A stretch of 64,000 nt of DNA, from the IMG/VR virus record IMGVR_UViG_3300005282_000001, positions 1 to 64,000 of that record; one strand, written 5' to 3'. Positions 2,594 through 36,647 of the stretch are shown piece after piece (position 1 is the first letter of the stretch; every line of letters starts with the position of its first letter). This DNA is from a virus. Lineage: Duplodnaviria > Caudoviricetes. The notes beneath the pieces were generated by a model. That model had not been told where the DNA came from and ran no database searches. It worked only from the letters and a program-made list of their open reading frames with translations. The position numbers and the translations under genes were made by a program.

Positions 2594-2632
2594 CGGTTAC
2601 ACAAAATGTAACGGGCGACTGAAGGGAGTAGG
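2594..2632 (+). repeat. Double-hairpin/RBS element, copy 1
   Basis: CG-GTTACAC-AAA-ATGTAAC-GGG-CGACTGAAGGGAG. Confidence 0.8.
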
Positions 2633-2641
2633 AAATTACCT

Positions 2642-2767
2642 ATGATTAACTCAAAATACCTTGTCAAGCTTCAGATTTTACTCAGCACGAAACGCATAAT
2701 CCGCAAGGGAATGCAAGTGGATACGTCAGAATTCAATGAGGTACAGCAGAAATGGCTAAGAAGCTAA
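2642..2767 (+). CDS. Small hypothetical protein (41 aa)
   Basis: Hand-translated MINSKYLVKLQILL...; SD-like site provided by element copy 1. Confidence 0.5.
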   Translation: MINSKYLVKLQILLSTKRIIRKGMQVDTSEFNEVQQKWLRS

Positions 2768-2779
2768 TGATGCTTGCGG

Positions 2780-2788
2780 TGCTATAAT
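2780..2788 (+). promoter_or_regulatory. Possible extended -10 promoter
   Basis: TG-C-TATAAT upstream of ORF 2812; no good -35. Confidence 0.4.
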
Positions 2789-2811
2789 ATATTACGAGGA
2801 GATGTATTGGT

Positions 2812-3642
2812 ATGGTAAAAGGATATAAGGTATTTAACAGTGACTGGACGTGTAGAGATGGTTTTAAGTACAAGGTGGGGGAAACGTATACCCAAGATGG
2901 AAAACTGGAGGTTTGCGGCAATGGATTGCACTTCTGCAAAAAGGCCGTTGATTGCTTTAATTATTATAGTTTTGATTCTTCAAATCATGTTGCTGAAGTG
3001 GTTGCCTATGGGAAAATAGCAGAACAGGGTGATAAATGTTGTACAAATAAACTAAAGGTTGTTGGGGAAATTTCGTGGCAGGAGGTATTAAACTTAGTCA
3101 ACACAGGAGACGACAACACAGGCTACCGCAACACAGGTAGCTTCAACACAGGTAACTTCAACACAGGCTACCGCAACACAGGTAACTTCAACACAGGTGA
3201 CCGCAACACAGGAGACGATAACACAGGTAACTTCAACACAGGTAACCGCAACACAGGCTACTTCAACACAGGTAACCGCAACACAGGTGATTGCAATATT
3301 TCAAACCATGAAACTGGAGTTTTTTGCACAGAAGAACATAAGATTCGTATATTCGATATTGAATCGGATATTACTTTTGAAGAATGGAGAGATTCCAGGG
3401 CATATTGGATATTATCTAAAGTGCTACTAATAGAGTGGGTTGAAGAGTATAGTATGACAGACGGAGAAAAAAGCAAACACCTAGAGTATAAAACTACTGG
3501 AGGGTATTTAAAGAAAGTTGATTTATTTTCTGCTTATGCTGCATGGTGGAAAAATCTTAGCGATGCTGACAAGAGTACCATTAAATCTATCCCAAACTTT
3601 AACTCTAAGAAATTTAAGATAATCACTGGAATCGAAGTATAG
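2812..3642 (+). CDS. Pentapeptide (NTGxx) repeat protein
   Basis: 13 tandem NTGxx units; GAGGAG SD. Confidence 0.85.
   Translation: MVKGYKVFNSDWTCRDGFKYKVGETYTQDGKLEVCGNGLHFCKKAVDCFNYYSFDSSNHVAEVVAYGKIAEQGDKCCTNKLKVVGEISWQEVLNLVNTGDDNTGYRNTGSFNTGNFNTGYRNTGNFNTGDRNTGDDNTGNFNTGNRNTGYFNTGNRNTGDCNISNHETGVFCTEEHKIRIFDIESDITFEEWRDSRAYWILSKVLLIEWVEEYSMTDGEKSKHLEYKTTGGYLKKVDLFSAYAAWWKNLSDADKSTIKSIPNFNSKKFKIITGIEV
3100..3294 (+). repeat. 15-bp coding tandem repeat x13
   Basis: AACACAGGnnnnnnn units encoding NTGxx. Confidence 0.95.
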
Positions 3643-3666
3643 CTATATGATTTAGGAGGAATACTA

Positions 3667-3801
3667 ATGAAACCATCACAAGAGTGCAAGAGTCACAATG
3701 AGTATTGCCAAGGTTGCCCTTATACAACAGAACACGGAGGATGTACCGCTGGGCAACCTTGGAAGCACAAACTTACAGTTGTGGACGGTGGACGCAAATG
3801 A
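3667..3801 (+). CDS. Small Cys-rich hypothetical protein (44 aa)
   Basis: AGGAGG SD; C..CxxCPY..C; ATGA overlap with the next gene. Confidence 0.6.
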   Translation: MKPSQECKSHNEYCQGCPYTTEHGGCTAGQPWKHKLTVVDGGRK

Positions 3802-3962
3802 TATACTTAGTAATTGCAGAGGTAGTACTTGCGTTAGTTGTATGGAAACTCGTAAGAAATTCCCCTTCAGGACTTAGGGCAGCAGATGGAATAATCCTTG
3901 GGTTATTTTTAAGTTCAATCATATGGATCGGAGGTGTTATCTTGTGGAAATTCTTGAATTAA
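3798..3962 (+). CDS. Small membrane protein (2 TM)
   Basis: 3' part of track ORF 3705-3962; two hydrophobic stretches; ATGA overlap. Confidence 0.65.
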   Translation: MIYLVIAEVVLALVVWKLVRNSPSGLRAADGIILGLFLSSIIWIGGVILWKFLN

Positions 3963-4016
3963 TCTTAGGACTCTATTGTTATCCAAAATATTACATCATA
4001 GGAGGTCGTAAGTATT

Positions 4017-4196
4017 ATGCTTGATGATAAACTTAATGAGTTCGAAAGTATCCCATGTTATACAGTAGGTAGGCACTCGTATATCTCAGAGGACTTCCTA
4101 CAATTTCCAGCAGGTACCAAGCGTCACACAGTGATGCAGTGGTTTGCTGATGAGTATCGTAAGAATCTATTGAATAACGGGGGTATATTGTTATGA
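4017..4196 (+). CDS. Hypothetical protein (59 aa)
   Basis: AGGAGG SD; hand-translated MLDDKLNEFESIPC... Confidence 0.6.
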   Translation: MLDDKLNEFESIPCYTVGRHSYISEDFLQFPAGTKRHTVMQWFADEYRKNLLNNGGILL

Positions 4197-4366
4197 TATT
4201 CTATGTTACTGTACATGATCCCGAGGTAAACTTCGTGAACGAATCCGAGTGTGCTCATAAGTTATTCGAGGAGATACGCAAGGTATTACCATACAAATCT
4301 TTTGATATCCGTAGGAAACCAGAGGAAGACCCTGTGTTACAATGGAACGGAGGGAATAACCAATGA
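4193..4366 (+). CDS. Hypothetical protein (57 aa)
   Basis: ATGA overlaps at both ends; hand-translated MIFYVTVHDPEV... Confidence 0.55.
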   Translation: MIFYVTVHDPEVNFVNESECAHKLFEEIRKVLPYKSFDIRRKPEEDPVLQWNGGNNQ

Positions 4367-4414
4367 TTCATATGATTGGTGCGCTGGCTCTTTGGTTACT
4401 CTGTAGAAAATAAT

Positions 4415-4455
4415 CGGTTACGCAAGGCGTAACGGGTGAACAAAGTGAACAGGAG
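4415..4455 (+). repeat. Double-hairpin/RBS element, copy 2
   Basis: CG-GTTACGC-AAG-GCGTAAC-GGG-TGAACAAAGTGAA-CAGGAG. Confidence 0.9.
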
Positions 4456-4665
4456 ATGGTACAAATGTTAACAATAGGAACAAAAGTAAAAATATTAGGA
4501 ACTACAACACCATGGCTTAAGGGCACAATAGGAACAGTAGGTGTTGTATCGAAGATCAGTAGAAAAGACGAAAAAGGCCAGTGGTATCTTGTAGAACTTC
4601 CTTATATTATCATGGGGGACAACAAGTGGTATTATGTTGAGCCAAAACTGGAGGAATACAAATGA
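4456..4665 (+). CDS. Hypothetical protein (KOW/SH3-like)
   Basis: IGTKVKI...GTIGTV pattern; start may be 4465. Confidence 0.65.
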   Translation: MVQMLTIGTKVKILGTTTPWLKGTIGTVGVVSKISRKDEKGQWYLVELPYIIMGDNKWYYVEPKLEEYK

Positions 4666-5051
4666 TTACTAAAGAAATGGAAGAGATTATCGTGGGATAC
4701 AACGGAATACTTAAGAATCTAGAGAATGACATAAGAAGCACCGAGGCTAAACTTAAGCATAACCACTTGAAAACTGTTGACTTGATGCACGAGGCTGACC
4801 CTAGAAATCACATTGAGGGGATGCCTAGGAAACGTAAGGTAGACTCAAGAATCGCCATGTCACTTGGGTTAAAACTCAAGGAACTTGCAATGGAACATAG
4901 GGACCTTAAGGATGAACTAGAGTTGCTCAAGGTAATCCAGCAGCAATTTCCTGAGAACTCCAAAGGTAAGACAGCGGTATCTAATGTATCCTCGTTTGTA
5001 CAGTGCGGGAAAACTAGAAAATACACAAGAAGAGTGGAGGAAAACAAATGA
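4662..5051 (+). CDS. Hypothetical coiled-coil protein
   Basis: GGAGG SD, ATGA overlaps. Confidence 0.7.
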   Translation: MITKEMEEIIVGYNGILKNLENDIRSTEAKLKHNHLKTVDLMHEADPRNHIEGMPRKRKVDSRIAMSLGLKLKELAMEHRDLKDELELLKVIQQQFPENSKGKTAVSNVSSFVQCGKTRKYTRRVEENK

Positions 5052-5482
5052 ACACAACGCTAAGCATCAGAAACCACACGTACACCTGCGACATCTCAGA
5101 ATCCGGCAAGACTACCTTTGAGCACTATGGGGAATTCATGAAGTATATCCATGACATTATCCAAGAATTACAAGAGGATTTTCCAGCGTTATTTCCTGAG
5201 AAACCTCAGCCGAAACTTCCGCTTGCTATTGGAATCCACAAGGAACTTGCAACGTGGGCTCAGGTACTAGGGGTATCCAAAAGGAACTTAGGTATTGCGT
5301 TAGGTAGCTGGACAAAAGGTAAGAGGTACCAGGCGGCCCTCAAGGTAGGCAAGGAGTTAAACATAAGATTTGGCGTTGGGTACCGTAAGAATGTCGTGAG
5401 CGTTCATCCGTATAACAAAAGAGATAAACGGTTGCGTAAGACGCAACGGGCGACCGAAGGGAAGCAGGAGGAAGACAAATGA
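5048..5482 (+). CDS. ProQ/FinO-family RNA-binding domain protein
   Basis: FPALF..PLAIGIHKEL...SKRNLGIALGSWT...RYQAAL..G..R resembles the ProQ/FinO consensus (FP.cF..PLKiGI...lr.AL..yt...rYL). Confidence 0.7.
   Translation: MNTTLSIRNHTYTCDISESGKTTFEHYGEFMKYIHDIIQELQEDFPALFPEKPQPKLPLAIGIHKELATWAQVLGVSKRNLGIALGSWTKGKRYQAALKVGKELNIRFGVGYRKNVVSVHPYNKRDKRLRKTQRATEGKQEEDK
5429..5471 (+). repeat. Double-hairpin/RBS element, copy 3
   Basis: CG-GTTGCGT-AAG-ACGCAAC-GGG-CGACCGAAGGGAAG-CAGGAGG; compensatory changes relative to copy 2. Confidence 0.9.
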
Positions 5483-5691
5483 ATGTCTTAAATAGACTTA
5501 TTTACGACCTTGAGGAACATCACAAGTACACCAAGGTACAGCTCAACTGTATTCTATATGGTTCCAATGAATATCATCACAAAGGCAAGGTAGTACTTGC
5601 GGAAGTCTATGAGATTACCTATAGGAACCATGTGTTAGCCATTGGGGACGAAAGATTTGGCGTGTACGAGGGGTACTATCGAGTCTTATGA
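5479..5691 (+). CDS. Hypothetical protein
   Basis: AGGAGG SD from element copy 3. Confidence 0.7.
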   Translation: MNVLNRLIYDLEEHHKYTKVQLNCILYGSNEYHHKGKVVLAEVYEITYRNHVLAIGDERFGVYEGYYRVL

Positions 5692-5722
5692 GTCCTTAGC
5701 AGCTCTAAAGTAAAATTTAGGG

Positions 5723-5751
5723 TTGCAATAGAATCCATAAGGTAGTACAAT
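5723..5751 (+). promoter_or_regulatory. Putative sigma-A promoter upstream of the recombinase operon
   Basis: TTGCAA-17 bp-TACAAT. Confidence 0.55.
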
Positions 5752-5762
5752 ACGAATAAGGG

Positions 5763-5954
5763 GTGAAACAGATGGATAAGCTTGAAAGAATGCTAGAGAA
5801 ACAAAAGAATAACGCTAGGAATTTCGATAGACAAATTAAGGAAATCATTAGTGGAACTAGAGTAAGTATTGACGATGAACTTTTGGAATCTATAGATAAA
5901 CAATACTTAGCAATAGAACACTATAGAGAAGGAATGAGTCGCTATGGACACTAA
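5763..5954 (+). CDS. Hypothetical protein
   Basis: ORF track; lies in the operon direction. Confidence 0.6.
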   Translation: MKQMDKLERMLEKQKNNARNFDRQIKEIISGTRVSIDDELLESIDKQYLAIEHYREGMSRYGH

Positions 5955-6681
5955 AGAGTTCTTACGTAAGATTCGCATCACACGCACAAGGAATACTTAT
6001 GAGTCCTACAAGGCAGCACTAGAATCAATTGGGCACTATAGAAATCTATTGGAGTTCATTGATAAGTCTAAGTTATCCGATAGTACTATTAAGCATCATA
6101 TGATTATCTATGGAAGATACCTAAGTAGTGCAGGAAAGCTTGATAAGAATACCCAGGAGATCATCTCAGAATACCGTGTGACTACTAAGGAAGAACCTTG
6201 CCCAACTCAAGAGGAATACCAAAGAGTTCGTAAGGAAGTATCCAAAAGATATACTCATGCGTTCCTATTGGCATCCCAGTGCGGCTTGCGAGTTTCTGAG
6301 ATCGCAAAGTTAACCATGGAAGACATAGCAGAAAACTATGTTATACTGAGAAATACTAAGAATCATACTACAGTAAAACAGCCGATCTCCAAAGAAACAT
6401 CAAAAGCTATGCGGGAAATTTCTTGGGTAGACTATGGAACAACAAGAGGAATTCAAGCGTACTTTCAGCGGTTACATGAGAAATGCGGCTGTAGTCAACT
6501 TACGGTTCACTCATGGAGACGCTGGTATATCAATTGCCTCGTAAGGAATGGCGTAGAGATTACATTGGTAAGAGCCGCTGCAAGACATAAAAATTTGGGA
6601 TCAACGCAAAAATATATAAATACGGAATCATCGATGGTAGAAGAAGCAATTAATAAAACTTTTAGTGGAGGCGATAAGTAA
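5944..6681 (+). CDS. Tyrosine recombinase/integrase (short, XerC/D-like size)
   Basis: Catalytic R (CGLRVSE), K (NTKN), HxxR (HSWRR), H (ARHKN), Y (TQKY). Confidence 0.9.
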   Translation: MDTKEFLRKIRITRTRNTYESYKAALESIGHYRNLLEFIDKSKLSDSTIKHHMIIYGRYLSSAGKLDKNTQEIISEYRVTTKEEPCPTQEEYQRVRKEVSKRYTHAFLLASQCGLRVSEIAKLTMEDIAENYVILRNTKNHTTVKQPISKETSKAMREISWVDYGTTRGIQAYFQRLHEKCGCSQLTVHSWRRWYINCLVRNGVEITLVRAAARHKNLGSTQKYINTESSMVEEAINKTFSGGDK

Positions 6682-7470
6682 TTGGCAAAGGCAAAAAATC
6701 TAATGGGACAGAAGTTTGATAGACTAACGGTAATAGGAAAATGTAAAGATGTTCATGGTCATCTAGCTTGGATATGTAAGTGCGATTGCGGTAATGAGGT
6801 AGTTAGTCATTCATATAATTTGCTCAAGAAGTCAATCTATTCATCATGTGGATGCTATAATTCAGATTATCATAAAACACATGGTCTATCAAAGACAAGG
6901 GAATATAAATGTTATAGATCTATGATAAATAGGTGCTGTGTGAGTACATCTCAGGACTATAGTAACTATGGGGGAAGAGGAATAACGGTATGCGATAGAT
7001 GGAAAGAATCATTTATTAACTTTTATAATGATATGGGGAAAAGACCGGGTAGTGGATATTCTATAGACAGGATAGACGTTAATGGAAACTACTGTAAGGA
7101 AAATTGCAGGTGGACAACTATGGAAGTTCAAAATAACAACAGAAGAAGTAATAAACTTGTTGAATATAAAGGAGATATTTATACTGTTAGCGAATTATCT
7201 AAAAAGTTAAAAATGAACTACCAAACACTCAAATCAAGACTAAAAAGAGGTCTATCCGATAATGAACTGTCTGGTTCACTAGACATGTCTAAGAAAAGAG
7301 ATATGAAACATCCTAAAGAATTAACTATTTTTTGCAATACGAAGAAGATAACAGAGTGGGGAAACTCTTTAGTAGTTAAGCAAAGGACATTGTACACATG
7401 GTACGCCAAGTACGGAAGAAACAAAACAGAGTCTATGGTAGAACAAGCGATTGCTGAAGTGTTCTTGTGA
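6682..7470 (+). mobile_element. Free-standing HNH-like homing endonuclease gene
   Basis: CKCDCG..SCGC, YGGRGITVCDRW, SIDRIDVNGNYCKENCRW; paralog of 19451 and 24561. Confidence 0.85.
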
Positions 7471-7631
7471 GTGTGTACAAGAACACTGGAGCGTACTTTA
7501 GGAATAACATAGGTAAGTGTAAGGTGATACCATAGAGAACCTCACCAGCCCGCTCACAGGAAGCGCAGGAAGGCTCTGTAGTAAAAACTTATGGTAACTT
7601 TTCGACAAAACGTCGATAACTATAAAAACAA

Positions 7632-8315
7632 ATGGAGGAACGAAAGATGACAAATGAATTAGTAAAGGTAATCAATGGTAAAACAGTAGTATCCAGTAGA
7701 GATGTTGCGGAGAACTTTGGGAAACAACACAAGGATGTATTGGAAATTATCAGAGGTATTTTGGCGGCGGGAAATTCCGCTGCGAAACTATTTGATTCAA
7801 CAGTGTATCTAAATAGAGGTAAGGAATATCCAGAGTATCTAATGAACCGTGATGGGTTCTCATTATTAGTTATGAGCTTCACAGGTCCAGCGGCACTCGA
7901 ATGGAAATTAAAGTACATTGCAGCGTTCAATAGTATGGAACAACGGTTAACATTCGCAATTCCTCAGACTTACGCAGAAGCTCTACAGTTAGCCGCAGAC
8001 CAAGCCAAGGAGTTACTACTGGCTAAGCCCAAAGTAGACTTCTATGATTCCGTAGCAGACTCTAAGGATGCCATAGGAATGGCTGAGGTAGCAAAGGTAC
8101 TCGGTGGAATCGGCAGGAACAAACTTTTCAAGTTCTTGAGAGACCATAAGGTACTCCAAGCGAATAACCTGCCGTACCAGCGGTATATCGACAGTGGATA
8201 CTTTAGAGTCCTTGAGCAGAAGTTTGGTGAACCTGCGCACATCACTACGAAGACACTAGTGTACCAAAGAGGTGTAGAGTACATTGGTAAACTTATGAAA
8301 GCTGAAGAGGTGTAA
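7632..8315 (+). CDS. Rha-family / KilA-C (ANT) antirepressor
   Basis: VSSRDVAENFGKQHKDVL (Rha) plus PKVDFYD...IGRNKLF..LR (KilA-C). Confidence 0.9.
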   Translation: MEERKMTNELVKVINGKTVVSSRDVAENFGKQHKDVLEIIRGILAAGNSAAKLFDSTVYLNRGKEYPEYLMNRDGFSLLVMSFTGPAALEWKLKYIAAFNSMEQRLTFAIPQTYAEALQLAADQAKELLLAKPKVDFYDSVADSKDAIGMAEVAKVLGGIGRNKLFKFLRDHKVLQANNLPYQRYIDSGYFRVLEQKFGEPAHITTKTLVYQRGVEYIGKLMKAEEV

Positions 8316-8319
8316 AATT

Positions 8320-8511
8320 ATGACATACGAAGAATCCTATAGAAACTGTAAAACTTATGAGGAATTCGAAAGAACTGTAAAGAATGATGCTATGATAGCT
8401 ATGTTTATGGGTAGTGCTGATAGGGTTAAAATTATAGAATCCACGGCAACTTCTATAGCTAAAGAAAAGGGCTGGACATATCTAGTACCCATGCGCAAGA
8501 AGAAGGTTTAA
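8320..8511 (+). CDS. Hypothetical protein
   Basis: ORF track; GAGGT SD. Confidence 0.65.
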   Translation: MTYEESYRNCKTYEEFERTVKNDAMIAMFMGSADRVKIIESTATSIAKEKGWTYLVPMRKKKV

Positions 8512-8514
8512 CAA

Positions 8515-8802
8515 ATGAAACATAAGAGACTTACTGACGATGAACTATGGAAAGTTTTTGAGCTATTGAATTACGAAGAACACCACGGTATCTTCTGTAC
8601 ACAGTTGTTTAACAAGATAAGACCCATGGCAGAAGAACTTAGGGAACGTAGGTATCCAGAGTTAACCTTATGCGATGCTATTGAGAAAGATAAGCATGGG
8701 AAGTGTATGGGACGCCAAGTAGAATTTTGCAATGAATGCCCTAAACTTGTGAAAGTCTCGGGTGAACGAAGTGAACAGGAGGTAACAAATGAAAATCCAT
8801 GA
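8515..8802 (+). CDS. Hypothetical protein
   Basis: ORF track; its 3' end encodes partial element copy 4. Confidence 0.65.
   Translation: MKHKRLTDDELWKVFELLNYEEHHGIFCTQLFNKIRPMAEELRERRYPELTLCDAIEKDKHGKCMGRQVEFCNECPKLVKVSGERSEQEVTNENP
8759..8782 (+). repeat. Double-hairpin/RBS element, copy 4 (3' half only)
   Basis: GGG-TGAACGAAGTGAA-CAGGAGG. Confidence 0.75.
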
Positions 8803-8959
8803 GATCCCATATGTAACAGCAGTAATTCACACGGAAACAAATGGAAGCAGAGGAAATCACAAGAGTTTTGAGGAAGAACTCAAGGAACAACTGGCAAACA
8901 AAACGGTTACACAGGGCGTAACGGGTGAACGTAGTGAACAGGAGGATAACAAATGTTAA
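8789..8959 (+). CDS. Hypothetical protein (56 aa)
   Basis: Hand-translated MKIHEIPYVTAV...; sits between element copies 4 and 5. Confidence 0.6.
   Translation: MKIHEIPYVTAVIHTETNGSRGNHKSFEEELKEQLANKTVTQGVTGERSEQEDNKC
8904..8945 (+). repeat. Double-hairpin/RBS element, copy 5
   Basis: CG-GTTACAC-AGG-GCGTAAC-GGG-TGAACGTAGTGAA-CAGGAGG. Confidence 0.9.
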
Positions 8960-9300: not shown

Positions 9301-9321
9301 CAAGAGGGAGCAGGTGAGCTA

Positions 9322-9492
9322 ATGGAACTTTGGATGATTTGTGCAGTACTCTCAGTAATCCCAGCGTACATTGCGGATTCAAAAGGGTACAATTGGAAAC
9401 TATGGTATCTTGCAGCGTGGTCATTGAATTTCTTCACGCTAATCCCAGTGATAGTTATTGTTTTATGCTTGAGAAAGAAGGGAAACAAATGA
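9322..9492 (+). CDS. Small membrane protein (56 aa)
   Basis: Hand-translated MELWMICAVLSVIPAYIADSKGYNWKLWY...; AGGT SD; ATGA overlap. Confidence 0.65.
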   Translation: MELWMICAVLSVIPAYIADSKGYNWKLWYLAAWSLNFFTLIPVIVIVLCLRKKGNK

Positions 9493-10872: not shown

Positions 10873-11161
10873 CCAAACAATCCAAGAGAAAGTCAAGCAA
10901 CGTCGCAGGCAACTCATAGTACACTCATATATTTACTATTGCTTAGATGAGAATATCATAAGTGACCGCAAGTGGTCCGAGTGGGCACAAGAGCTTGTCG
11001 AGTTACAACAGAAGTACCCTAAGGAATCCGCTGAGGTAGAGTATTGGAATATCTTTAGGGACTTCGATGGCAGCACAGGTTTCCACTTGACAGTCGATTG
11101 TGATCCATGGGTTGAACCAGTGGCAAAACTTTTGCTTGACAGAAGGAATAACAAGGGGTAA
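10865..11161 (+). CDS. Stand-alone protein resembling the N-terminal (Ia) subdomain of NAD-dependent DNA ligase
   Basis: HSYIYY.LD..IISD..W resembles LigA YY..D.P.ISD.EYD; no adenylation lysine domain. Confidence 0.55.
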   Translation: MNNQTIQEKVKQRRRQLIVHSYIYYCLDENIISDRKWSEWAQELVELQQKYPKESAEVEYWNIFRDFDGSTGFHLTVDCDPWVEPVAKLLLDRRNNKG

Positions 11162-11177
11162 CATAAGGATATCAAAT

Positions 11178-11220
11178 CGGTTATGCAAGGCGTAACGGGT
11201 GAGCAAAAGCGAACAGGAGG
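11178..11220 (+). repeat. Double-hairpin/RBS element, copy 6
   Basis: CG-GTTATGC-AAG-GCGTAAC-GGG-TGAGCAAAAGCGAA-CAGGAGG. Confidence 0.9.
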
Positions 11221-11228
11221 GATAACAA

Positions 11229-17864: not shown

Positions 17865-17904
17865 CGGTTACGCAAGACGTAACGGACGACTGAAAGGAGT
17901 AGGG
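17865..17904 (+). repeat. Double-hairpin/RBS element, copy 7
   Basis: CG-GTTACGC-AAG-ACGTAAC-GGA-CGACTGAAAGGAG-TAGGG. Confidence 0.85.
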
Positions 17905-17911
17905 TAAACAA

Positions 17912-26098: not shown

Positions 26099-26317
26099 AT
26101 GATTAACAAAACAAAACTTATGAATCTTAAGAATCGCTTGGAAGGACACAACGCAGCATGTGAATCCGTAGGAACGCCTTATGTAACCGCAAAGGGTTCA
26201 TTAGCACTCGCTAAGAAAGCTAGAGAAGACTGGGCGGTTGCTACAGAACAATCATGGACGAAAACACGGTTGCACAAGGGGCAACGGGCGAACGAAGAGA
26301 GTAGGGAGCGTAAGTGA
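26099..26317 (+). CDS. Hypothetical protein
   Basis: GGAGG SD at the corrected start; 3' end encodes element copy 8. Confidence 0.6.
   Translation: MINKTKLMNLKNRLEGHNAACESVGTPYVTAKGSLALAKKAREDWAVATEQSWTKTRLHKGQRANEESRERK
26267..26308 (+). repeat. Double-hairpin/RBS element, copy 8
   Basis: CG-GTTGCAC-AAG-GGGCAAC-GGG-CGAACGAAGAGAG-TAGGGAG. Confidence 0.8.
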
Positions 26318-28925: not shown

Positions 28926-31900
28926 ATGAAATCGGGAGGGAACGTATTGGAATCTAATACAAACTTAGGTGGCAAATGGTATGACAAGGAAATTGGCAAG
29001 GGTATCTTTAGTAAGAAGTACATGCATGAGGATGACAAGGGAGTCGCGGATGTATTCAAAAGGGTTGCTAAGACATCCCAAGTAGAAGCAATGGAAGAGC
29101 ATATGGAGCGTGGGGATATCCTACCAGCAGGACGCTCGATATACGGTGCGGAATCCAAGGGGAAGTTTAAGGTAACTTTGTCAAACTGTTACATTCTTAG
29201 GAGTCCTACTGACACCATTGAGGATATATATGACACCAATAAGGAAATGGCTAGGGTATTCTCATATGGAGGAGGATGCGGAATCTCCATCAGTAACCTG
29301 CGACCTAAGGGGGCTAAGGTTAACAACAGTGCCAAGACATCATCAGGAGCCGTAAGTTTCCTTGAGTTATTCAACAGTACAGGTGATGTCATCGGGCAGA
29401 ATGGTAGACGTGCAGCAATCATGGTAATGCTTGATTGTTCTCATCCGGATCTCTATGAGTTCCTCAAGATTAAACAGACGAATCACAAGTTGGAATCCAT
29501 GAATATTTCCATTAAATTTACAGATGAGTTCATGGTTGCTGTTAGGGATAACACAGAGTATACCTTACGATTTGATGTAGAGTCCACAGGGGAACATATA
29601 GAACGAACTATTGATGCTCGTAAGTTCTTTGAGGAGTTCTGTGAGACGAACTGGGATTTTGGAGACCCTGGAGCTTGTTATATAACCCCTGTGAGAGACT
29701 ATAACTTGCTAAGTAGATATCCGGAGTACCAAATAGACTGTAGTAACCCATGCGTAACTGGTGATACTATTGTAATGACAAGAAATGGTTATGAACCAAT
29801 AGTAAAACTAATTGATAAACCTTGTGACATTTGGAATGGATATGAGTGGAGCACTGTTATCCCTAAGGTAACTGGTCGCAATCAAAAAATGCTGAAGGTA
29901 TCGCTGTCAAATGGGATGTCATTGGATTGCACAAGATATCATAAGTTTATTCTTAAGGATGACAGCAGGGTAAAAGCAGAAGAACTAACTGTTGGCGATA
30001 AGTTGTCCAAGTGGGATTACCCAGTAATCACCGGTGATAATAGTAGCTTGTATGAGGGTAAAGTAAATCCCTACATGAACGGATTTTATAGCGGCGACGG
30101 AACAAAAAATAGAAGCGAAATAGTGGTTTACGCTGACAAGAGAAAACTAATAGATAAACTTGAACCATTAAGAGTTCTACCGTATGATGGGTTTTCTAAA
30201 GTTATTCTATCGGAAGTGCCGATTGGAAAATCATTCGTACCTACTGTTTCTGAATCCATCTCTTTTAGATTGAAATGGCTAGCTGGGCTTATCGACTCAG
30301 ACGGATGTAAAAATGATGAGACTGGCAGCATAGCTATATCAAGTATAGATAGAGAATTTATTGGAAATGTTCAGCTAATGTTGTCTACAATGGGTTGCCA
30401 TTCATCTATAGCAAAAATGAGAGCTGCTGGAAAAAAACTTCTGCCTAAGAATGATGGATCTGGTGAATACGGAGAATACTATTGTCAAGATTGCTATAGG
30501 ATAGTTATAAGTTGCTTTTATGTTAAGAAATTATTAGACATTGGTTTAGAATTGTTTAGAGTAGAGGTTAATCCTCATCCAAACAGAGACGCTGGCAGAT
30601 TTGTTTATGTAACAAAAATAGAGAAGATTGAAGATGAATCAATTGTCTATTGTTTTGACGAACCAATCAATCACTCAGGTATATTTAATGGAATTATGAC
30701 AGCACAGTGCTCAGAATTTTTTGGAAATGCTGGCAACAGCTGTAACTTGACAAGTATCAACTTGTACAACATTGTATCACATCCGTTTACTAAGGAAGCT
30801 AAAGTAGACTATGGGAAACTTAAACAACTCGTAACAACTTCAGTTGTAGCTCTTAACAATATCTTAGATTACGGATATGAACTACAGCCACTTGAGATTA
30901 ACCGTGAGTGTATCAAGGATTGGCGTTCAATTGGCTTGGGAGTTATGGGTATCTCAGATATGTATGTGGCTCTTGGGTTGCGCTACGGTTCAGAAGAAGC
31001 TAATGGGTTGACAGAGGATGTATTCCATGTTATACTCAAGGAGTCGATAAGAGCTTCTGCAATGCTCGCGAGTAAACATGGGACATTCGGGAAGTACAAC
31101 TGGAAGAAAACTAAAGAGTCTCCAATGATGAAACTACTGGAAGGAACTGAAGAATACCGACTGGTACAGAAGTATGGCTTACGTAACGGTACATTGCTTT
31201 CCATTGCACCAACAGGCTCCATTGCAACAGCCATTGGAGTATCAACAGGCATCGAGCCATTCTTTAGAGTATCTTATGAACGTACAACACATTCCATGGA
31301 GGGTGAAGGGAAAACTTTTGTGGTCCACTCGAAATCTGTAGAAGACCTATTGAGATTCCATGGATTGCCACAAGATATGCCAGTGGAATCCATTAAGGAA
31401 CGCTTCCCGTTTGTTGTGGATACTGATGATATCGCACCATCGGACCGTGTGAGGACTCAATCGGTAATCCAACAGTACGTTGACAATGCCATCAGTTCTA
31501 CAGTGAACCTTAAGGAATCTGCGACACCTCAAGATATCTTTGAGATTTACATGGCAGCATGGAAGGGTAAACTCAAGGGTATTACAGTGTTTCGCGATGG
31601 ATGTGCCAGAGGTAATATCTTGGGAGTCAAGAAGGATAAACCGAAGTTACGCCGCAGAGATATCCATAAGATTAACGGTAGCACATTCAAGAAGAGTTCC
31701 TCATGTGCTCAATCGATGTACGTAACAGTCAACAGCATTGACCAAGGGACTCCATTTGAAATCTTCACAAACTCCTCTGGTGGTTGTGCAAGTAACATTG
31801 GTACCATAACGAGACTTACGTCACTTGCGTTACGCCATGGGGTATCAGCAGAGTCAGTCATAAGGGAACTCAAGGAAAACAAATGTCCTGCATGTCAACT

Positions 31901-32120
31901 CTTGAGACGCCAAGGTAATGCAGATGTATCCTTATCATGCGGCAGTGCAATCGCAGAAGCTCTTGAGGAAAGCTGCGGAAGTACGCAAGGGGTAACTAAG
32001 GGAATCACAAAAGAATTACAAGAGACTAAACTGGAGTGTCCAGAATGTCATGAGAAAACACTGGTATCCACTGGTAAATGTTTCTCATGTTCAAACTGCG
32101 GATATTCCAAATGTGACTGA
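28926..32120 (+). CDS. nrdJ: Class II (adenosylcobalamin-dependent) ribonucleotide reductase, intein-containing
   Basis: PAGR, SNCY, GGCG...LRP.G, RRAA.M, SNP/CSE, CNL.SINL, SIAPTGS, QQYVDNAISST.N, KGIT.FRDG, C-terminal TSCPD-like and Zn ribbon; no small-subunit gene nearby. Confidence 0.9.
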   Translation: MKSGGNVLESNTNLGGKWYDKEIGKGIFSKKYMHEDDKGVADVFKRVAKTSQVEAMEEHMERGDILPAGRSIYGAESKGKFKVTLSNCYILRSPTDTIEDIYDTNKEMARVFSYGGGCGISISNLRPKGAKVNNSAKTSSGAVSFLELFNSTGDVIGQNGRRAAIMVMLDCSHPDLYEFLKIKQTNHKLESMNISIKFTDEFMVAVRDNTEYTLRFDVESTGEHIERTIDARKFFEEFCETNWDFGDPGACYITPVRDYNLLSRYPEYQIDCSNPCVTGDTIVMTRNGYEPIVKLIDKPCDIWNGYEWSTVIPKVTGRNQKMLKVSLSNGMSLDCTRYHKFILKDDSRVKAEELTVGDKLSKWDYPVITGDNSSLYEGKVNPYMNGFYSGDGTKNRSEIVVYADKRKLIDKLEPLRVLPYDGFSKVILSEVPIGKSFVPTVSESISFRLKWLAGLIDSDGCKNDETGSIAISSIDREFIGNVQLMLSTMGCHSSIAKMRAAGKKLLPKNDGSGEYGEYYCQDCYRIVISCFYVKKLLDIGLELFRVEVNPHPNRDAGRFVYVTKIEKIEDESIVYCFDEPINHSGIFNGIMTAQCSEFFGNAGNSCNLTSINLYNIVSHPFTKEAKVDYGKLKQLVTTSVVALNNILDYGYELQPLEINRECIKDWRSIGLGVMGISDMYVALGLRYGSEEANGLTEDVFHVILKESIRASAMLASKHGTFGKYNWKKTKESPMMKLLEGTEEYRLVQKYGLRNGTLLSIAPTGSIATAIGVSTGIEPFFRVSYERTTHSMEGEGKTFVVHSKSVEDLLRFHGLPQDMPVESIKERFPFVVDTDDIAPSDRVRTQSVIQQYVDNAISSTVNLKESATPQDIFEIYMAAWKGKLKGITVFRDGCARGNILGVKKDKPKLRRRDIHKINGSTFKKSSSCAQSMYVTVNSIDQGTPFEIFTNSSGGCASNIGTITRLTSLALRHGVSAESVIRELKENKCPACQLLRRQGNADVSLSCGSAIAEALEESCGSTQGVTKGITKELQETKLECPECHEKTLVSTGKCFSCSNCGYSKCD
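29751..30707 (+). mobile_element. Intein (319 aa) with LAGLIDADG endonuclease in NrdJ
   Basis: Starts CVTGDT after SNP; block B CTRYHKF; NGFYSGDG and LAGLIDSDG; ends GIMTAQ before +1 Cys. Confidence 0.93.
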
Positions 32121-34154: not shown

Positions 34155-34561
34155 GATACTTTAGTAAACTAAACGATTCAGTAGAACTACCAGCGAGAGC
34201 CACAAAAGGCTCCGCTGGTTATGACATAAGAGTTACAGAGGGTGGCATAGTACCTCCTGGTAAAACTGTAGTATTCAGCACGGGACTTACGGTAACTATG
34301 GAACCAGATGAAGTACTGCTGATTTACCCTAGGAGTTCCATTGGCATCAAGAGACACCTTATGTTATCCAACACAACTGGTGTGATTGACTCAGATTATA
34401 CAGAAGAAATCCATATGGCTCTTACAAACTTCGGGGAAAGAACACAGATAATCAATAGTAGTGAAAGGGTAGCACAGGGAATCTTCACAAAGTATCTAGT
34501 GGCTACAGATGATAACACAACAGATGAACGCACGGGCGGCATCGGAAGTACAGGGAGATGA
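34151..34561 (+). CDS. dut: Trimeric dUTPase
   Basis: Five motifs: AGYDI, RSS, GVIDSDY, AQG, RTGGIGSTG. Confidence 0.95.
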   Translation: MRYFSKLNDSVELPARATKGSAGYDIRVTEGGIVPPGKTVVFSTGLTVTMEPDEVLLIYPRSSIGIKRHLMLSNTTGVIDSDYTEEIHMALTNFGERTQIINSSERVAQGIFTKYLVATDDNTTDERTGGIGSTGR

Positions 34562-34565
34562 ACAT

Positions 34566-34730
34566 ATGATTACTGATGAGAAAGCAATGAAATATGTAAG
34601 GAAACTTAACAAGTTCTGTGGGGAACGCAGTTGTAGCAAATGTATCTTTCAGTATATTGATACGCATACCGCTTGTCCCATAGCTGTTCTAACGTCTAAC
34701 TTTGAAGTTTGCATTGGTAAACCATTATGA
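34566..34730 (+). CDS. Small Cys-rich protein (ITDE.A..Y...L..C..CxxC family)
   Basis: Paralog of 35034, 36185 and the C-terminus of 35835. Confidence 0.65.
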   Translation: MITDEKAMKYVRKLNKFCGERSCSKCIFQYIDTHTACPIAVLTSNFEVCIGKPL

Positions 34731-35056
34731 TCCATCAGATTCTTATAGACTACAGAGACTCTGGAGATTACTTCAGATTCTCTATTGACTCCACAGAAAG
34801 ACTAGAAGACATCCTTACGTATTTCCAACAGTATTCCAAAGACGTACGCTACTGGCGTTCACAAGAAGAGCCTAGGAGAAACGAGAAGGGAACTAGGGTT
34901 ACACCAGTAGGCACATTGATATCATGCGGATACTTTGGTACTAAGATAGGGTATCAAATGAGATTCGAAAAGAGTGACTATAGACTTAAAGGAGTACTCG
35001 ATAGTATACCTGATGAAAGGCATGTGATTGCATATGACTACACAACTGATTACTGA
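34727..35056 (+). CDS. Hypothetical protein
   Basis: ORF track; ATGA overlap. Confidence 0.65.
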   Translation: MIHQILIDYRDSGDYFRFSIDSTERLEDILTYFQQYSKDVRYWRSQEEPRRNEKGTRVTPVGTLISCGYFGTKIGYQMRFEKSDYRLKGVLDSIPDERHVIAYDYTTDY

Positions 35057-35231
35057 TGAACAAGCAATAGAATACGCAAGAGAACTAGAGAAATACTGTA
35101 ATAATAGAAGAAACTGTTCTGAATGCCCATTTGAAACAGACAAATCTCTTGACGCATGGGGAGAAACTACCGACTGCATAGGAAATTCTCTAAAGGATCT
35201 TAAGAAACCATTAGGTGATGCCATTGGATAA
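35034..35231 (+). CDS. Small Cys-rich protein (same family)
   Basis: ITDEQAIEYARELEKYC...CSECPF. Confidence 0.65.
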   Translation: MTTQLITDEQAIEYARELEKYCNNRRNCSECPFETDKSLDAWGETTDCIGNSLKDLKKPLGDAIG

Positions 35232-35838
35232 ACTAGAGCAACTACTGGTAGACAATAGTCCTCAAGTGTTACTCCGCAAGCTCGAAGGAGATACCATAAG
35301 AGAGGACAGAAGGTACTATAGGGATACCGAAAGAATCCGTGGGAAACTTACAGATTATATAAAAGTCCCACGGGACCCCTTGGATTACCTTGTGGAACAA
35401 GAGGAGAAGCAAGAGATTCTCGCAGTAGTACAAAAGATATACCGTGAGTTACCACAAGAGCTATCTGAGGTATTCCAACTGATGGTAATCAAGGGATATA
35501 CCAAGCAAGCCGCCTCAGACTTCCTAGGAGTGTCTCTAGCGACAGTTTACCGTAGACTCGATAGATTACAAGAGGAACTCAAGAAGTACCGCTCAGAACT
35601 CACCATAGAGACTCATGAAAGTACATTAGAAGCAAAAGCACCACGGGATTTCATTAGATACGCTTGTGAGTTCTATAAGGATTACTATGAAGGTAAAGTG
35701 AATCGCCAAGGGAACTACATTACACACTGTAGAATCCAAAGGTACTTCGATGAATCCTTTGGTGACGACAAGACTACCTGCGGAATGTGTGATAAGTGTT
35801 CAAATGGATTCATGAGGAAACGGAGGGATTGCAAATGA
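35215..35838 (+). CDS. Sigma-70 region 4-like HTH transcription regulator (possible late or middle activator)
   Basis: DPLDYLVEQEE...ELPQELSEVFQL..IKGYT...A..LGVSLATVYRRL. Confidence 0.75.
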   Translation: MMPLDKLEQLLVDNSPQVLLRKLEGDTIREDRRYYRDTERIRGKLTDYIKVPRDPLDYLVEQEEKQEILAVVQKIYRELPQELSEVFQLMVIKGYTKQAASDFLGVSLATVYRRLDRLQEELKKYRSELTIETHESTLEAKAPRDFIRYACEFYKDYYEGKVNRQGNYITHCRIQRYFDESFGDDKTTCGMCDKCSNGFMRKRRDCK

Positions 35839-36188
35839 TAGCAAAGGTAAGGGTAGGAACCTATAAACATGACGATGGAGAACAAGAGTATACAATGGGA
35901 TGCTACGCGGTAATCAATGGAATCTTATGTGATAATGTAACAAAAATTGAGACATCATCTGAACATGCTAAGTTAACATCAGCAACGATAACGTTCACAA
36001 GCGATGTTGGGTTTACAAATGAACCAAAGGATACTACTGTTATTACTGATAATCCAATGGAACTTGCTAAGAAATTACAGCAGTATTGCAAGGGAAGAGA
36101 ATGTATCGGATGTGTACTTTCTAATGGATCATGTAAATTATCAACACCATATAATCCAACCCAATGGGAACTAGGTGATGACAAATGA
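35835..36188 (+). CDS. Hypothetical protein with Cys-rich C-terminal module
   Basis: GGAGG SD at the corrected start. Confidence 0.65.
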   Translation: MIAKVRVGTYKHDDGEQEYTMGCYAVINGILCDNVTKIETSSEHAKLTSATITFTSDVGFTNEPKDTTVITDNPMELAKKLQQYCKGRECIGCVLSNGSCKLSTPYNPTQWELGDDK

Positions 36189-36346
36189 TTACTGAAGAGC
36201 AAGCAATAGAATATGCAAAGAAACTTAAGGAATTCTGTAGTGAACAAGATAGTCATTGCAAAGGGTGCCCATTTAAACTCAGTAGTAATTGTTCTGTAGG
36301 AAGTCTAGGTTACGTATCGCCTTGCGATTGGGTACTAGATGACTGA
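36185..36346 (+). CDS. Small Cys-rich protein (53 aa, absent from the track)
   Basis: MITEEQAIEYAKKLKEFC...CKGCPF. Confidence 0.7.
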   Translation: MITEEQAIEYAKKLKEFCSEQDSHCKGCPFKLSSNCSVGSLGYVSPCDWVLDD

Positions 36347-36647
36347 TATACGGACGCAACTTATAACTCCACTGACTCCACGGGATGAACGTCCGTTGCC
36401 ATCGCCTCCTATAAATCCAAAAGAAACTCATATAAGTACTAATGTAATCTCAGAAGTCCTCAGAGTAAAACAGCAGTATCCCAATATGAGCTTCTATAGA
36501 TTCATATGTTTCGCTGCGGGTCGTGTGGGGCACTGTGAGGATGACCATCAGTTACTCTTGGGATTACAGATGTTAGACAAGCAAGGTAACCGTGCGGATG
36601 TACAGGGTACATCGGGTGAACGCAGTGAACAGGAGGTGAATAGGTGA
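36339..36647 (+). CDS. Hypothetical protein
   Basis: ORF track; 3' end encodes element copy 9. Confidence 0.6.
   Translation: MTDIRTQLITPLTPRDERPLPSPPINPKETHISTNVISEVLRVKQQYPNMSFYRFICFAAGRVGHCEDDHQLLLGLQMLDKQGNRADVQGTSGERSEQEVNR
36595..36636 (+). repeat. Double-hairpin/RBS element, copy 9
   Basis: CG-GATGTAC-AGG-GTACATC-GGG-TGAACGCAGTGAA-CAGGAGG; perfect 7-bp stem with a different sequence. Confidence 0.9.

Follow-up and report, generated by a model that had tools for sequence, protein, structure and literature searches.

The genome of an uncultured 76.6-kb phage carries a small two-hairpin RNA element immediately 5' of the ribosome-binding sites that serve early genes. Eight copies are full and one is a half copy, and all lie on the plus strand between positions 2594 and 36643 of the window (the 64,000-nt stretch of DNA that was analysed; Table 1). 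It is a real mRNA leader module that is mobile in evolution, has not been catalogued and is restricted to the clade of this phage. A role at the RNA level, in translation or in the fate of the mRNA, is the best reading. Judged from sequence, the element may tentatively be regarded as a portable cis-acting mRNA leader that unites a 5' structure with a ribosome site. The main rival to this reading is an operator for a regulatory protein.

Distribution of the element

The sequence given in the preliminary description was present at all nine places in the window, and every copy ends in AGG or AGGAGG with a start codon 10-14 nt beyond. A structure-aware scan of both strands returned the eight full copies on the plus strand and one unrelated chance match on the minus strand. 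With covariance model R1, the full copies scored 58.6-66.9 bits (E-values of 1e-19 to 1e-22). The sole other R1 match in the 76.6-kb genome reached 14.5 bits and had no hairpin 1 when inspected; a broader model, R2, gave no additional copy in either the window or the final 12.6 kb of the genome. The late, minus-strand arm contained no copy on either strand in the R1 and R2 scans, as had been described, and the element is restricted to the early arm. The proposed check against already described families returned none: the element matched no Rfam family, and no real copy was found in 185,579 prokaryote genomes. Minor departures from the common form were one additional base in hairpin 2 (copy 5429), a 4-nt loop (copy 11178) and one A.A mismatch (copy 26267).

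Table 1. Copies of the two-hairpin element and associated features in the window
Feature	Position	Strand	Score	Start codon and downstream ORF	Remarks
Copy 1	2594..2641	+	R1 58.6 bits	ATG 2642, 41-aa ORF	helix 1, helix 2, weak SD
Copy 2	4415..4464	+	R1 66.9 bits	ATG 4465, 66-aa ORF	
ProQ/FinO-domain protein gene	5048..5482	+	Pfam PF04352, E 8.4e-16, 58 bits (cut-off 27)		
Copy 3	5429..5478	+	R1 61.6 bits	ATG 5479, 70-aa ORF	within last ~18 codons of ProQ/FinO-domain ORF
Half copy	8759..8788	+	R1 28.5 bits, R2 44.7 bits	ATG 8789, 56-aa ORF	helix 2 and SD alone
Copy 4	8904..8952	+	R1 66.4 bits	ATG 8953, 115-aa ORF	within end of ORF 8789-8959
sigma-70-type promoter-like site	11136..11164	+			TTGACA, 17 nt, TAACAT; predicted start ~6 nt before copy 5
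Copy 5	11178..11228	+	R1 64.4 bits	ATG 11229, 154-aa ORF	intergenic
Copy 6	17865..17911	+	R1 63.0 bits	ATG 17912, 362-aa ORF	intergenic, after Gp2.5-like SSB gene (annotation)
Copy 7	26267..26313	+	R1 61.8 bits	GTG 26314, dNMP kinase (annotation)	within end of ORF 25979-26317
Copy 8	36595..36643	+	R1 60.1 bits	GTG 36644, 36-aa hydrophobic ORF	within end of ORF 36339-36647

Secondary structure and covariation

Helix 1 and helix 2 abut with no linker between them. In helix 1, seven pairs are variable, and an invariant C-G pair together with a G.G pair (G.U in some copies) closes them. Helix 2 has six 'pairs'; a tandem G.A forms its centre, and its loop is short and in most cases GAA. The closing C-G pair, the G.G mismatch and the tandem G.A form a sequence-conserved core at the helix junction, amid freely covarying stems; the loop of hairpin 1 varies freely. 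The 5' flank, A-rich ahead of the closing C in most copies, and the Shine-Dalgarno (SD) sequence exit the structure at one point. Half copies retain helix 2 and the SD, which marks these two parts as the core module. The identical fold, including the C-G closing pair, was recovered with RNAalifold. In ViennaRNA, accessibility of the SD was not raised relative to shuffled cores.

Among the window copies and one outside copy, 9 of the 11 Watson-Crick pairs showed double changes, with pairing in 92.9% of cells versus 17-39% with the partners slid. A wider alignment comprised 23 copies from nine contigs (the window copies and 14 from eight related metagenomic contigs). Here, compensatory double changes occurred in 10 of 13 proposed pairs, 90.6% of cells pair versus 27-48% in slid controls, and compensated cells numbered 70 versus 25 +/- 4.4 in shuffles. 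The covariation described earlier was reproduced and held in the larger alignment; the stem variants quoted and the tandem GA, mostly GNA loop and T-A or C-G closing pair of hairpin 2 were as stated.

Copies 5429, 8759, 8904, 26267 and 36595 overlap the ends of upstream ORFs and are read in frames 0, 0, 1, 0 and 1, respectively. Since the frames differ, no shared peptide is conserved, and the earlier proposal that selection acts on nucleic-acid structure and not on a peptide is supported.

Helix 2 is folded by the plus strand alone; on the other strand, the tandem G.A and the G.G would be pyrimidine mismatches. In another reading, antisense transcription would be stopped by hairpin 1 and the T-rich complement of the 5' flank behind it. 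Within the first 19 kb, hairpin 1 on the minus strand accounts for 4 of 12 terminator-like sites. A function as antisense terminator is nevertheless highly improbable: the T runs are short and interrupted, with CG between them and the stem, the minus-strand flank is not T-rich in copies 2594 and 36595, and in copy 11178 a T.G wobble turns into a C.A mismatch on that strand with loss of the fold. It would also leave helix 2 and the tandem G.A without a role.

Register to ribosome-binding sites and promoters

Among the 23 copies, AGG follows helix 2 immediately in 22, a start codon lies 10-14 nt past AGG in at least 20, and all are in sense orientation to genes, in keeping with the strand specificity and the tie to ribosome-binding sites noted before. 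A DNA signal needs neither zero-distance fusion to the SD nor a start codon at this distance nor a constant sense direction. In DNA, C-G-closed GNA loops and tandem sheared G.A pairs are very stable, and the preliminary description had suggested a single-stranded signal (primase, recombination or hairpin-promoter site). The single-stranded plus strand would then form mini-hairpins that serve in priming, in recombination (attC-like) or as a hairpin promoter. Hairpin 1 does fold under DNA parameters as well, a small tyrosine recombinase gene is present at 5944-6681 with homologues in contigs L082 and L085 directly preceded by the element, and joints between relatives touch the element. However, the other arm is free of copies on either strand, attC boxes and geometry are missing, replacements of the element alone are not cassette events, and no Y1/HUH transposase is encoded. 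The hairpin 1 loop, which would face the polymerase at a hairpin promoter, is variable, and the annotated ORFs included no phage RNA polymerase. A DNA-level function, the hairpin-promoter variant included, is considered very unlikely.

Seven of the 23 copies (4 of ~16 independent loci) are preceded by a promoter match of at least 9/12 with the -10 ending 5-13 nt before the closing C, against a background rate of 2.9% at this distance. These copies sit 2-6 nt downstream of the predicted sigma-70-type transcription start. The arrangement at copy 5 is conserved at L078:9182.

About 16 of the 23 copies are without a promoter, and the leader reading would there require a putative cut. Cutting might itself be the function: the polycistronic early transcript would be processed by a host endonuclease in the A-rich flank beside the structure or, less likely, would cut itself, with the element as an undescribed small self-cleaver. 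Two true hammerhead ribozymes surround the first gene on the same early transcript, 130-600 nt upstream of copy 1 (sub-threshold Rfam matches at 1978-2047 and 2413-2460). Read from the alignment, the conserved junction nucleotides and GA-stem-GA order of the element resemble hammerhead domain 2 (Rfam clan CL00010): hairpin, purine-rich junction, GA, short stem-loop and GA(A) would correspond to stem I, core and stem II of type III. However, U4 and A6 or A14 of the hammerhead core are replaced, stem III and the cleavage triplet (NUH site) are missing, and no Rfam ribozyme model matched any copy at E-values up to 10. For a classical RNase III site, the two helices are too short even when combined, no RNase III gene is present in the phage, and the copies starting just behind a promoter require no cut. 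Processing is an improbable function.

Presence and absence in related phages

The element is nomadic: its place in the window is taken by a plain ribosome site in relatives, and vice versa, and its positions are non-syntenic. At any single gene it is dispensable in relatives. Among the recombination joints listed, 8 of ~24 touch a copy. A syntenic half copy stands ahead of the small ORF homologous to that behind copy 1 in L078, and half copies like 8759 also occur at L078:5310 and L085:5628. The second copy and its 66-aa gene are missing in relatives (joint 4414>4662), and a different element variant occupies the site in L070 and L084. The junction of copy 3 is found without the element in L082, L083 and L085, and the copy is deleted in one metagenomic relative (joint 5418>5460). 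Copy 4 has an intact orthologue in L076 and a decayed remnant in L075, and its downstream gene is swapped in relatives (joints 8944/8945>9322). In one relative, a 17-nt plain SD stretch replaces copy 5 (joint 11177>11227), and the homologous gene in L074, L075 and L076 is not preceded by the element. At copy 6, joint 17854>18128 has a plain SD between its two sides. Of the recombination handle proposed earlier, the occurrence of the element at sites of cassette difference stands, but ordinary gene starts, with their common ACAAATG context, are also places where joints cluster.

Such clean presence or absence at identical junctions, the decayed remnant and the shifting positions would also suit a selfish nomadic repeat comparable to Rickettsia palindromic elements, MITEs or REPs, which would spread and be lost by recombination with no benefit to the phage and be tolerated because its fold keeps it out of the way and it supplies a ribosome site of its own. 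Five window copies lengthen upstream ORFs by arbitrary tails, e.g. that of the ProQ-like protein, and copies within one genome are more alike than orthologous copies across genomes, which suggests gene conversion. However, structure and core are kept in lineages with proteins only ~45-63% identical, orientation and start-codon register are strict in at least 20 of 23 copies, no transposase or Y1/HUH enzyme is encoded, and the empty sites show no target-site duplication. A selfish repeat is regarded as rather improbable.

The ProQ/FinO-domain gene and possible translational control

The preliminary description had linked the element to a ProQ-like protein. The gene is real, and its 3' end is formed by copy 5429. 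However, its homologues (124-142 aa), where compared, have neither the element-encoded tail nor an element at their own 3' end. The link is weakened further by a 64-kb relative with at least four well-formed copies (50-58 bits) and no FinO/ProQ homologue across its complete early arm, although ProQ of the host or a late-arm gene might serve there. ORF 5048-5482 is only a candidate partner of the element. In total, the interpretation in the preliminary description is partly supported.

A translational operator is unlikely, though it accounts for several features. A trans-acting RNA-binding protein (candidates are the phage FinO/ProQ-domain protein, host ProQ or a small early protein) would bind the junction core and coordinate scattered early genes; as helix 2 touches the SD, the bound protein would block or aid 30S binding. 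The conserved non-Watson-Crick core amid covarying stems, the abutment of hairpin 2 on the SD, the limitation to the early arm and the FinO/ProQ-domain gene in the same region agree with this function. All five contigs retrieved through ProQ homologues carry at least one element, and the similarity of copies within a genome is expected if they track one reader. On the other side stand the 64-kb relative, the 3' ends of the ProQ homologues and the positions, which vary among relatives, as would be unusual in an essential circuit. The hairpins bound by FinO domains mostly end in a free 3' tail (PMC9977716), a feature that the internal element does not have.

Comparison with known systems

The promoter-early stem-loops (PeSLs) of T4-type phages act at the level of transcription; each is a terminator stem-loop with a strong sigma-70 promoter behind it (Arbiol et al. 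2010, PMC2839356; Comeau et al. 2014, PMC4122927). Like the element, they are short cassettes with a regulatory role that recur on one strand among small early genes, join a stem-loop to an expression signal and lie at the borders where close relatives differ by insertion, deletion or replacement. Unlike PeSLs, the element has two hairpins, no U tract and a fused ribosome site, and the promoter, if any, is upstream of the hairpins. With the FinP/traJ leader and FinO, and with FopA and Inc RNA (PMC9977716), it has in common that a two-stem-loop RNA adjoins a ribosome site and that the mobile genome also carries a FinO-domain gene; those systems, however, use an antisense RNA with terminator and free 3' tail, whereas for the element neither antisense RNA nor 3' tail is evident, and one relative keeps the element without a FinO-domain gene.

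Translational operators at the SD include the T4 gp43 hairpin, the T4 RegA sites and the E. coli thrS operator. There, too, a hairpin lies immediately 5' of the SD so that bound protein would compete with the 30S subunit, and RegA likewise covers many early genes. For the element, by contrast, a repressor is only postulated, individual genes do not keep their sites, and neither sequence nor fold is related to those operators.

The 5' stabiliser leaders of ompA, Bacillus and phage SP82 (PMC3997798) resemble the element in having a hairpin near the 5' end followed by a strong ribosome site, a likeness that extends to the seven copies directly behind a predicted start. These leaders are single-copy and need no particular sequence, whereas the element is repeated, mostly operon-internal and invariant in its G.G and tandem G.A core.

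Proposed function as mRNA leader

Protection in the ompA leader comes from two parts, the 5'-terminal stem-loops and the ribosome site, and 5' stabilisers have been described in leaders of Bacillus phages (review PMC3997798). For the element, we infer an effect on stabilisation and translation. The sense transcript folds into the two abutting hairpins, and the structured 5' terminus would impede 5'-end-dependent decay, with a strong ribosome site directly behind. This terminus would be primary where a promoter adjoins upstream and, in operon-internal copies, the product of a putative cut in the A-rich flank. Stabilisation covers only part of the conservation, since stability needs no invariant tandem G.A, G.G mismatch or zero-nt spacing to the SD; the conservation of sequence in the non-Watson-Crick core implies a reader of the fold, with the ribosome platform, a nuclease or a protein as candidates. 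Structure and ribosome site travel as one unit, accompanied in a quarter of the loci by a predicted sigma-70-type promoter, and the module would supply the downstream gene with a defined, context-independent 5' end.

Detection of the element

Both strands were scanned with a pattern of a 7-bp stem and a 3-nt loop followed by GGR-Y-GA. Eight full copies were recovered on the plus strand and one unrelated match on the minus strand, and the half copy was picked up with a pattern for the second hairpin. A covariance model (R1) built from the eight window copies and one outside copy gave 58.6-66.9 bits for the full copies and 28.5 bits for the half copy. Its sole other match in the genome was rejected on inspection (see table), and a broader second model (R2) gave no additional copies. 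By the scans and both models, the preliminary description was correct in counting eight full copies and one half copy, on a single strand and in the rightward arm only, and the sequence it described was present at every coordinate.

Positions of the element and of other features discussed in the text
Feature	Position (nt)	Strand	Remarks
Tandem repeat, ~5 copies of a ~30-nt unit	1-150	+	catctcagcaacaccagagtacattagagg and variants; left end of record; possibly a terminal or packaging repeat
Direct repeat, ~80 nt	430-520; 1170-1260		each copy behind a small leftward ORF
Strong terminator-like hairpins	514-493; 1253-1234	-	at the ends of the two direct repeats
Consensus sigma-70-type promoters	1589; 1671	+	start of the rightward genes
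Hammerheads, type II and type I	1978-2047; 2413-2460	+	31.1 and 17.6 bits, both below Rfam gathering scores
First early ORF	2033-2422		bracketed by the hammerheads
Element, full copies	2594; 4415; 5429; 8904; 11178; 17865; 26267; 36595	+
Element, half copy	8759	+	helix 2 and SD
Element-led gene	4465-4665	+
ORF used as ESM Atlas query	4662-5051
ProQ-like gene	5048-5482		copy 5429 overlaps its 3' end
ANT/KilAC paralogues	7647-8315; 11832-12566	+
Element-led gene, ESM Atlas query	11229-11693	+
DNA polymerase III alpha	12563-16426	+	intein with HNH nuclease
Element-led gene, 362-aa product	17912-19000	+
Ribonucleotide reductase	28926-32120	+	intein with LAGLIDADG nuclease
36-codon ORF, small hydrophobic peptide	36644-36754	+	led by the last element copy; end of rightward arm
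Rejected R1 match	75200-75247	-	14.5 bits; without hairpin 1

Fold and covariation

In 5' to 3' order, the element is composed of an A-rich flank, a C and a G, the 7-bp stem with a loop of 3-5 nt, a G (or U) and a G, a second stem, and at once an AGG. The second stem is formed by R-Y, Y-R, a tandem G.A/A.G and two Watson-Crick pairs, with a loop of 3-4 nt whose last base is always A.

Covariation of the stems, as claimed earlier, was confirmed in the window set: both sides had changed in 9 of 11 Watson-Crick pairs, and 92.9% of the cells paired as compared with 17-39% after the 3' partners had been slid. The same held for a larger alignment of 23 copies, 14 of them from relatives, with double changes in 10 of 13 pairs, 70 compensated cells versus 25 +/- 4.4 in shuffles, and 90.6% pairing cells versus 27-48% with slid partners, figures biased towards structure by the fitting of this alignment to the model. 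RNAalifold, applied unaided to the same alignment, returned the identical two helices including the outer C-G pair. Only nine contigs are represented. Many copies are related by descent or conversion, so that cell counts overstate the independent events; the eight distinct stem-1 sequences are the safer figure.

The flanking C-G pair and stem-1 pairs 1 and 3 (G-C, U-A) were invariant. The pair after the flanking C-G was G.G in 17 copies and G.U in three, and the tandem G.A was retained in 20 of 22 copies. Loop 1 was unconstrained (AAG, AGG, AAA, GCAA, TTTA, TAAA, ACAG), and loop 2 was mostly GAA. Joined without a linker, the two helices can stack as one rod with a loop at either end; the conserved, partly non-canonical core is located at mid-rod, where both flanks exit.

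Action as RNA or DNA

All 23 copies were sense to the surrounding genes. In 22 of them AGG came directly after helix 2 with no base between, and in at least 20 a start codon opening an ORF was located 10-14 nt past the AGG. A signal read in single-stranded DNA, as considered in the preliminary description, has no reason to keep such a register with SD and start codon, and on the strength of these sequence features we take the element to act as RNA. Folding by energy models, DNA parameters included, did not separate the two options; the sense-only orientation and the fixed register favour RNA, and a DNA signal is considered very improbable. The wobble count (7 G.U versus 4 A.C cells) agreed with the plus strand but is too weak a test alone. 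Read from the minus strand, both the tandem G.A and the G.G turn into pyrimidine mismatches, and helix 2 was predicted on the plus strand only; that the element serves as a terminator of antisense transcription is thought extremely unlikely.

Five window copies overlap ORF ends and are read in frames 0, 0, 1, 0 and 1, in agreement with the earlier statement that the frames differ; the element is thus not conserved as a peptide. At the ProQ-like ORF, copy 5429 accounts for an extension of about 18 codons relative to the aligned relatives L082, L083 and L085 (alignment A4).

Distribution and comparison with known families

A search of the 64 kb against Rfam 15 at gathering scores gave no match. 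At E values up to 10, region 1900-12000 yielded only two hammerheads and one chance lncRNA match, none of them on an element. A pattern of the invariant positions was run against genomes of 185,579 prokaryote species (one per species), where all 13 matches were due to chance (at most 19 bits), against 2.9 million viral contigs, where one true further copy was found (contig L034), and against 241 million metagenome records, where again one true copy was found (L070). An earlier pattern had given 44 stretches in the viral contigs, 43 of them by chance. The sole gain of a looser pattern, contig L088, reached 19-23 bits and was set aside as doubtful. Homologues of two window proteins led to eight related phage fragments and a 64-kb relative; copies on these relatives scored 20-66 bits, always in sense orientation and always with a start codon next. 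As judged from these searches, the element family is real and is confined to this clade. The clade was common in wastewater and aquatic samples by read recruitment. No RNA run was listed among those carrying the phage, and two wastewater runs labelled 'RNA?' are probably DNA.

Several known structures were compared and rejected. In a kink-turn the tandem G.A lies beside a 3-nt bulge, and in a K-loop it closes the loop directly; the tandem G.A of the element has Watson-Crick pairs on either side, no bulge, and a distance of two pairs from the loop. Integron attC sites have R''/R' boxes (RYYYAAC ... GTTRRRY) whose inner end carries AAC/GTT; they contain extrahelical bases and are served by an IntI-type integrase. 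The outer end of stem 1 is a variable G-N-T (GTT, GAT, GGT), replacements of the element alone occur, and the nearby recombinase (245 aa) gave a generic Phage_integrase match only. Repeats of the REP/RAYT or IS200/IS605 type were dismissed after a search for PF01797 (Y1/HUH transposase), which was absent from the 76.6-kb genome and positive in control genomes. The guanidine-II (mini-ykkC) riboswitch also places two small hairpins before an SD, each with a conserved ACGR loop; loop 1 of the element is variable, loop 2 is mostly GAA, and Rfam gave no such match (1900-12000, E up to 10). The hammerhead has a CUGANGA ... GAAA core, three stems and an NUH cleavage site. The element has the junction CGGGYGA or CGGAYGA, with GAR after helix 2, and its flanks are unable to form stem III (alignment A3).

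Closest in behaviour are the PeSL cassettes of T4-type phages, which are repeated in the early region at indel borders and consist of a terminator followed by a promoter (PMC2839356, PMC4122927). Like them, the element borders indels and replacements that distinguish close relatives. In contrast to PeSL, it lacks a terminator and is fused to a ribosome site; no intrinsic terminator was predicted on the plus strand of any copy, where GGG and helix 2 come after hairpin 1 and AGG comes after helix 2. Every PeSL cassette has a strong sigma-70-type promoter, as opposed to 7 of 23 element copies, where it lies upstream of the hairpins. We file the element in kind as a mobile regulatory cassette or structured mRNA leader, and as an RNA motif as new.

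Gene content of the early arm

The IMG/VR record, of which the window is the first 64 kb, has 76,575 bp and is rated complete. Rightward genes extend to about 37.2 kb, with leftward genes beyond. Early and replication genes occupy the rightward arm: a DUF7666/pentapeptide protein, a small tyrosine recombinase, two ANT/KilAC proteins, DNA polymerase III alpha with an HNH intein, a Gp2.5-like SSB, an RNA-ligase-family protein, a primase-helicase, a 5'-3' exonuclease, a dNMP kinase, RusA, a class II ribonucleotide reductase with a LAGLIDADG intein, and a sigma-like protein. The 64-kb relative has its intein in the primase-helicase instead, and its reductase is of the anaerobic NrdD type. Nucleotide searches (10 kb and 7.4 kb) and protein searches (primase-helicase and ProQ-like protein) against isolated phages gave no or remote matches (22-28% identity); by this measure the phage is without a close isolated or cultured relative at the DNA or protein level.

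Seven of the nine element-led gene products were searched in PHROGs and Pfam, and a named function was obtained for the dNMP kinase only; the product of the 66-aa ORF had one weak match to an unnamed family. Queries of the ESM Atlas with two ORFs gave unnamed clusters only, all below 0.9. Three element-led genes (4465-4665, 11229-11693, 17912-19000) are mutually related, as seen indirectly from tblastn matches that they have in common in relatives. Within the 362-aa protein, residues 73-169 are similar to the 154-aa protein family and the C-terminal ~65 residues to the 66-aa protein. A protein from the early region of relative L085 (L085:4258-4437) has a precomputed Pfam match to the anti-CRISPR AcrIC5, a hint that the hosts may carry type I-C CRISPR systems.

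Promoters beside copies

Beside 7 of the 23 copies, equal to four of about 16 independent loci, 9-11 of 12 positions agreed with a sigma-70-type promoter. In these, the -10 hexamer ended 5-13 nt before the closing C, an arrangement seen at 2.9% of random arm positions, and the predicted start lay 2-6 nt before helix 1, in one case just inside it. At such copies the element would, on these predicted starts, be the very 5' end of the primary transcript. The remaining copies had no such promoter and lie within operons.

Gain, loss and recombination joints

From comparison with relatives, the element is judged to be nomadic. The gene behind copy 11178 has homologues without an element in L074, L075 and L076, and in one metagenomic relative the copy is replaced exactly by a 17-nt plain SD stretch (joint 11177>11227 between window and relative). 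Copy 5429 is missing at the same junction in L082, L083 and L085 (alignment A4) and has been lost by deletion from another relative (5418>5460). One relative lacks both copy 4415 and its gene (4414>4662), and in L070 and L084 a different element variant occupies the site of this copy. Joints 8944/5>9322 and 17854>18128 are also at element borders. Elements occur in relatives where the window has none; in L082 and L085, for instance, one precedes the recombinase gene. A decayed remnant at L075:1691-1722 has the first half of hairpin 1 joined straight to AAC-AGGAGG, as if by deletion between short repeats, which shows that loss of copies occurs in addition to gain. Only two positions appear conserved over distance, one before a 41-aa ORF (2594; half copy in L078) and one after Nlig-Ia (11178; L078:9182).

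Stem-1 sequences were more alike among copies of one genome than among orthologous copies, which suggests gene conversion or recent spread. Such spread would also suit a selfish repeat, propagated for its own sake; beside the coupling of nearly all copies to ribosome site and start codon, this explanation is held to be unlikely.

Eight of about 24 listed joints between window and relatives were within 12 nt of an element, and elements make up less than 3% of that stretch. The suggested role as a recombination handle therefore stands in part: the element is one kind of joint, and ordinary gene starts are joint sites too. The latter share an ACAAATG context throughout the arm; this is the general start context of plus-arm genes and was not counted as part of the element. 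Relatives with joints between the ANT/KilAC paralogues (12155>7958, 12161>7965) point to recombination between the two, deleting or duplicating about 4 kb.

Relation to the ProQ-like protein

The product of the ProQ-like ORF, encoded on the plus strand, is a true FinO/ProQ-domain protein, and the genome has no other. Homologues were found only in related metagenomic contigs and not in isolated phages, and are mostly shorter (124-142 versus 144 aa). The element was present on all five contigs found through these homologues, never at the homologue's 3' end. In the 64-kb relative, homologues of the genes flanking the ProQ-like ORF adjoin each other, and no FinO domain was detected on its whole early arm, either by tblastn or with an HMM built from seven homologues. 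This relative retains four copies (50-58 bits) and a half copy, so the element can be maintained without a phage ProQ-like protein; a host ProQ or a gene on the relative's late arm might act in its place. The hairpins bound by FinO domains mostly have a free 3' tail (PMC9977716), and neither hairpin of the element is followed by a U tail on the sense strand. A FinP-like ligand would be expected to have such a tail or a terminator, and an antisense partner. The proposed link to the ProQ-like protein is weakened on these grounds. An operator bound by some protein would suit the conserved core; it is the main rival to the reading favoured below, and is regarded as rather unlikely.

Proposed function

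Taken together, the sequence data fix a sense-strand RNA structure that is locked to the ribosome site, portable, and placed at transcript starts and between cistrons. The simplest function that would fit is a self-contained leader, which by analogy is put forward tentatively, at slightly less than an even chance. A structured 5' end would hinder 5'-end-dependent decay, and a strong ribosome site would stand directly behind it; these are the two protective parts of the ompA leader and of 5' stabilisers (PMC3997798). For internal copies, a cut in the A-rich flank would be needed. A processing or self-cleaving site as the function proper would likewise place a new 5' end at internal copies; given the failed hammerhead comparison, it is considered improbable. 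The leader reading is not rated higher because it leaves the invariant G.G, the tandem G.A and the zero spacing unexplained, and because folding of the element against shuffled cores with ViennaRNA predicted no gain in SD exposure.

From its conservation, the core must be read by something. The G.G and tandem G.A junction could dock a dedicated reader, either a phage or host chaperone of the FinO/ProQ type or the ribosome platform, stacking on the SD:anti-SD helix; this proposal is speculative and on the unlikely side. A still bolder variant is a new small self-cleaving motif, alongside the hammerheads on the same transcript. If docking were true, the element would represent a new class of portable translational control module, fused to the ribosome-binding site and shuffled between genes by phages, and the genes so marked would come under one post-transcriptional programme.

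With about 36 nt, unusually clean covariation and a sharp non-canonical core, the motif is directly testable. Should there be no reader, it would offer synthetic biology a possibly useful insulated ribosome-binding-site part of natural origin; should a reader of the core be found, a new phage post-transcriptional regulon would be defined. T4-type phages have repeated cassettes that control early genes and serve as gene-shuffling joints at the level of transcription. The element would play the corresponding part for mRNA leaders and ribosome sites, in an uncultured clade unrelated to those phages.
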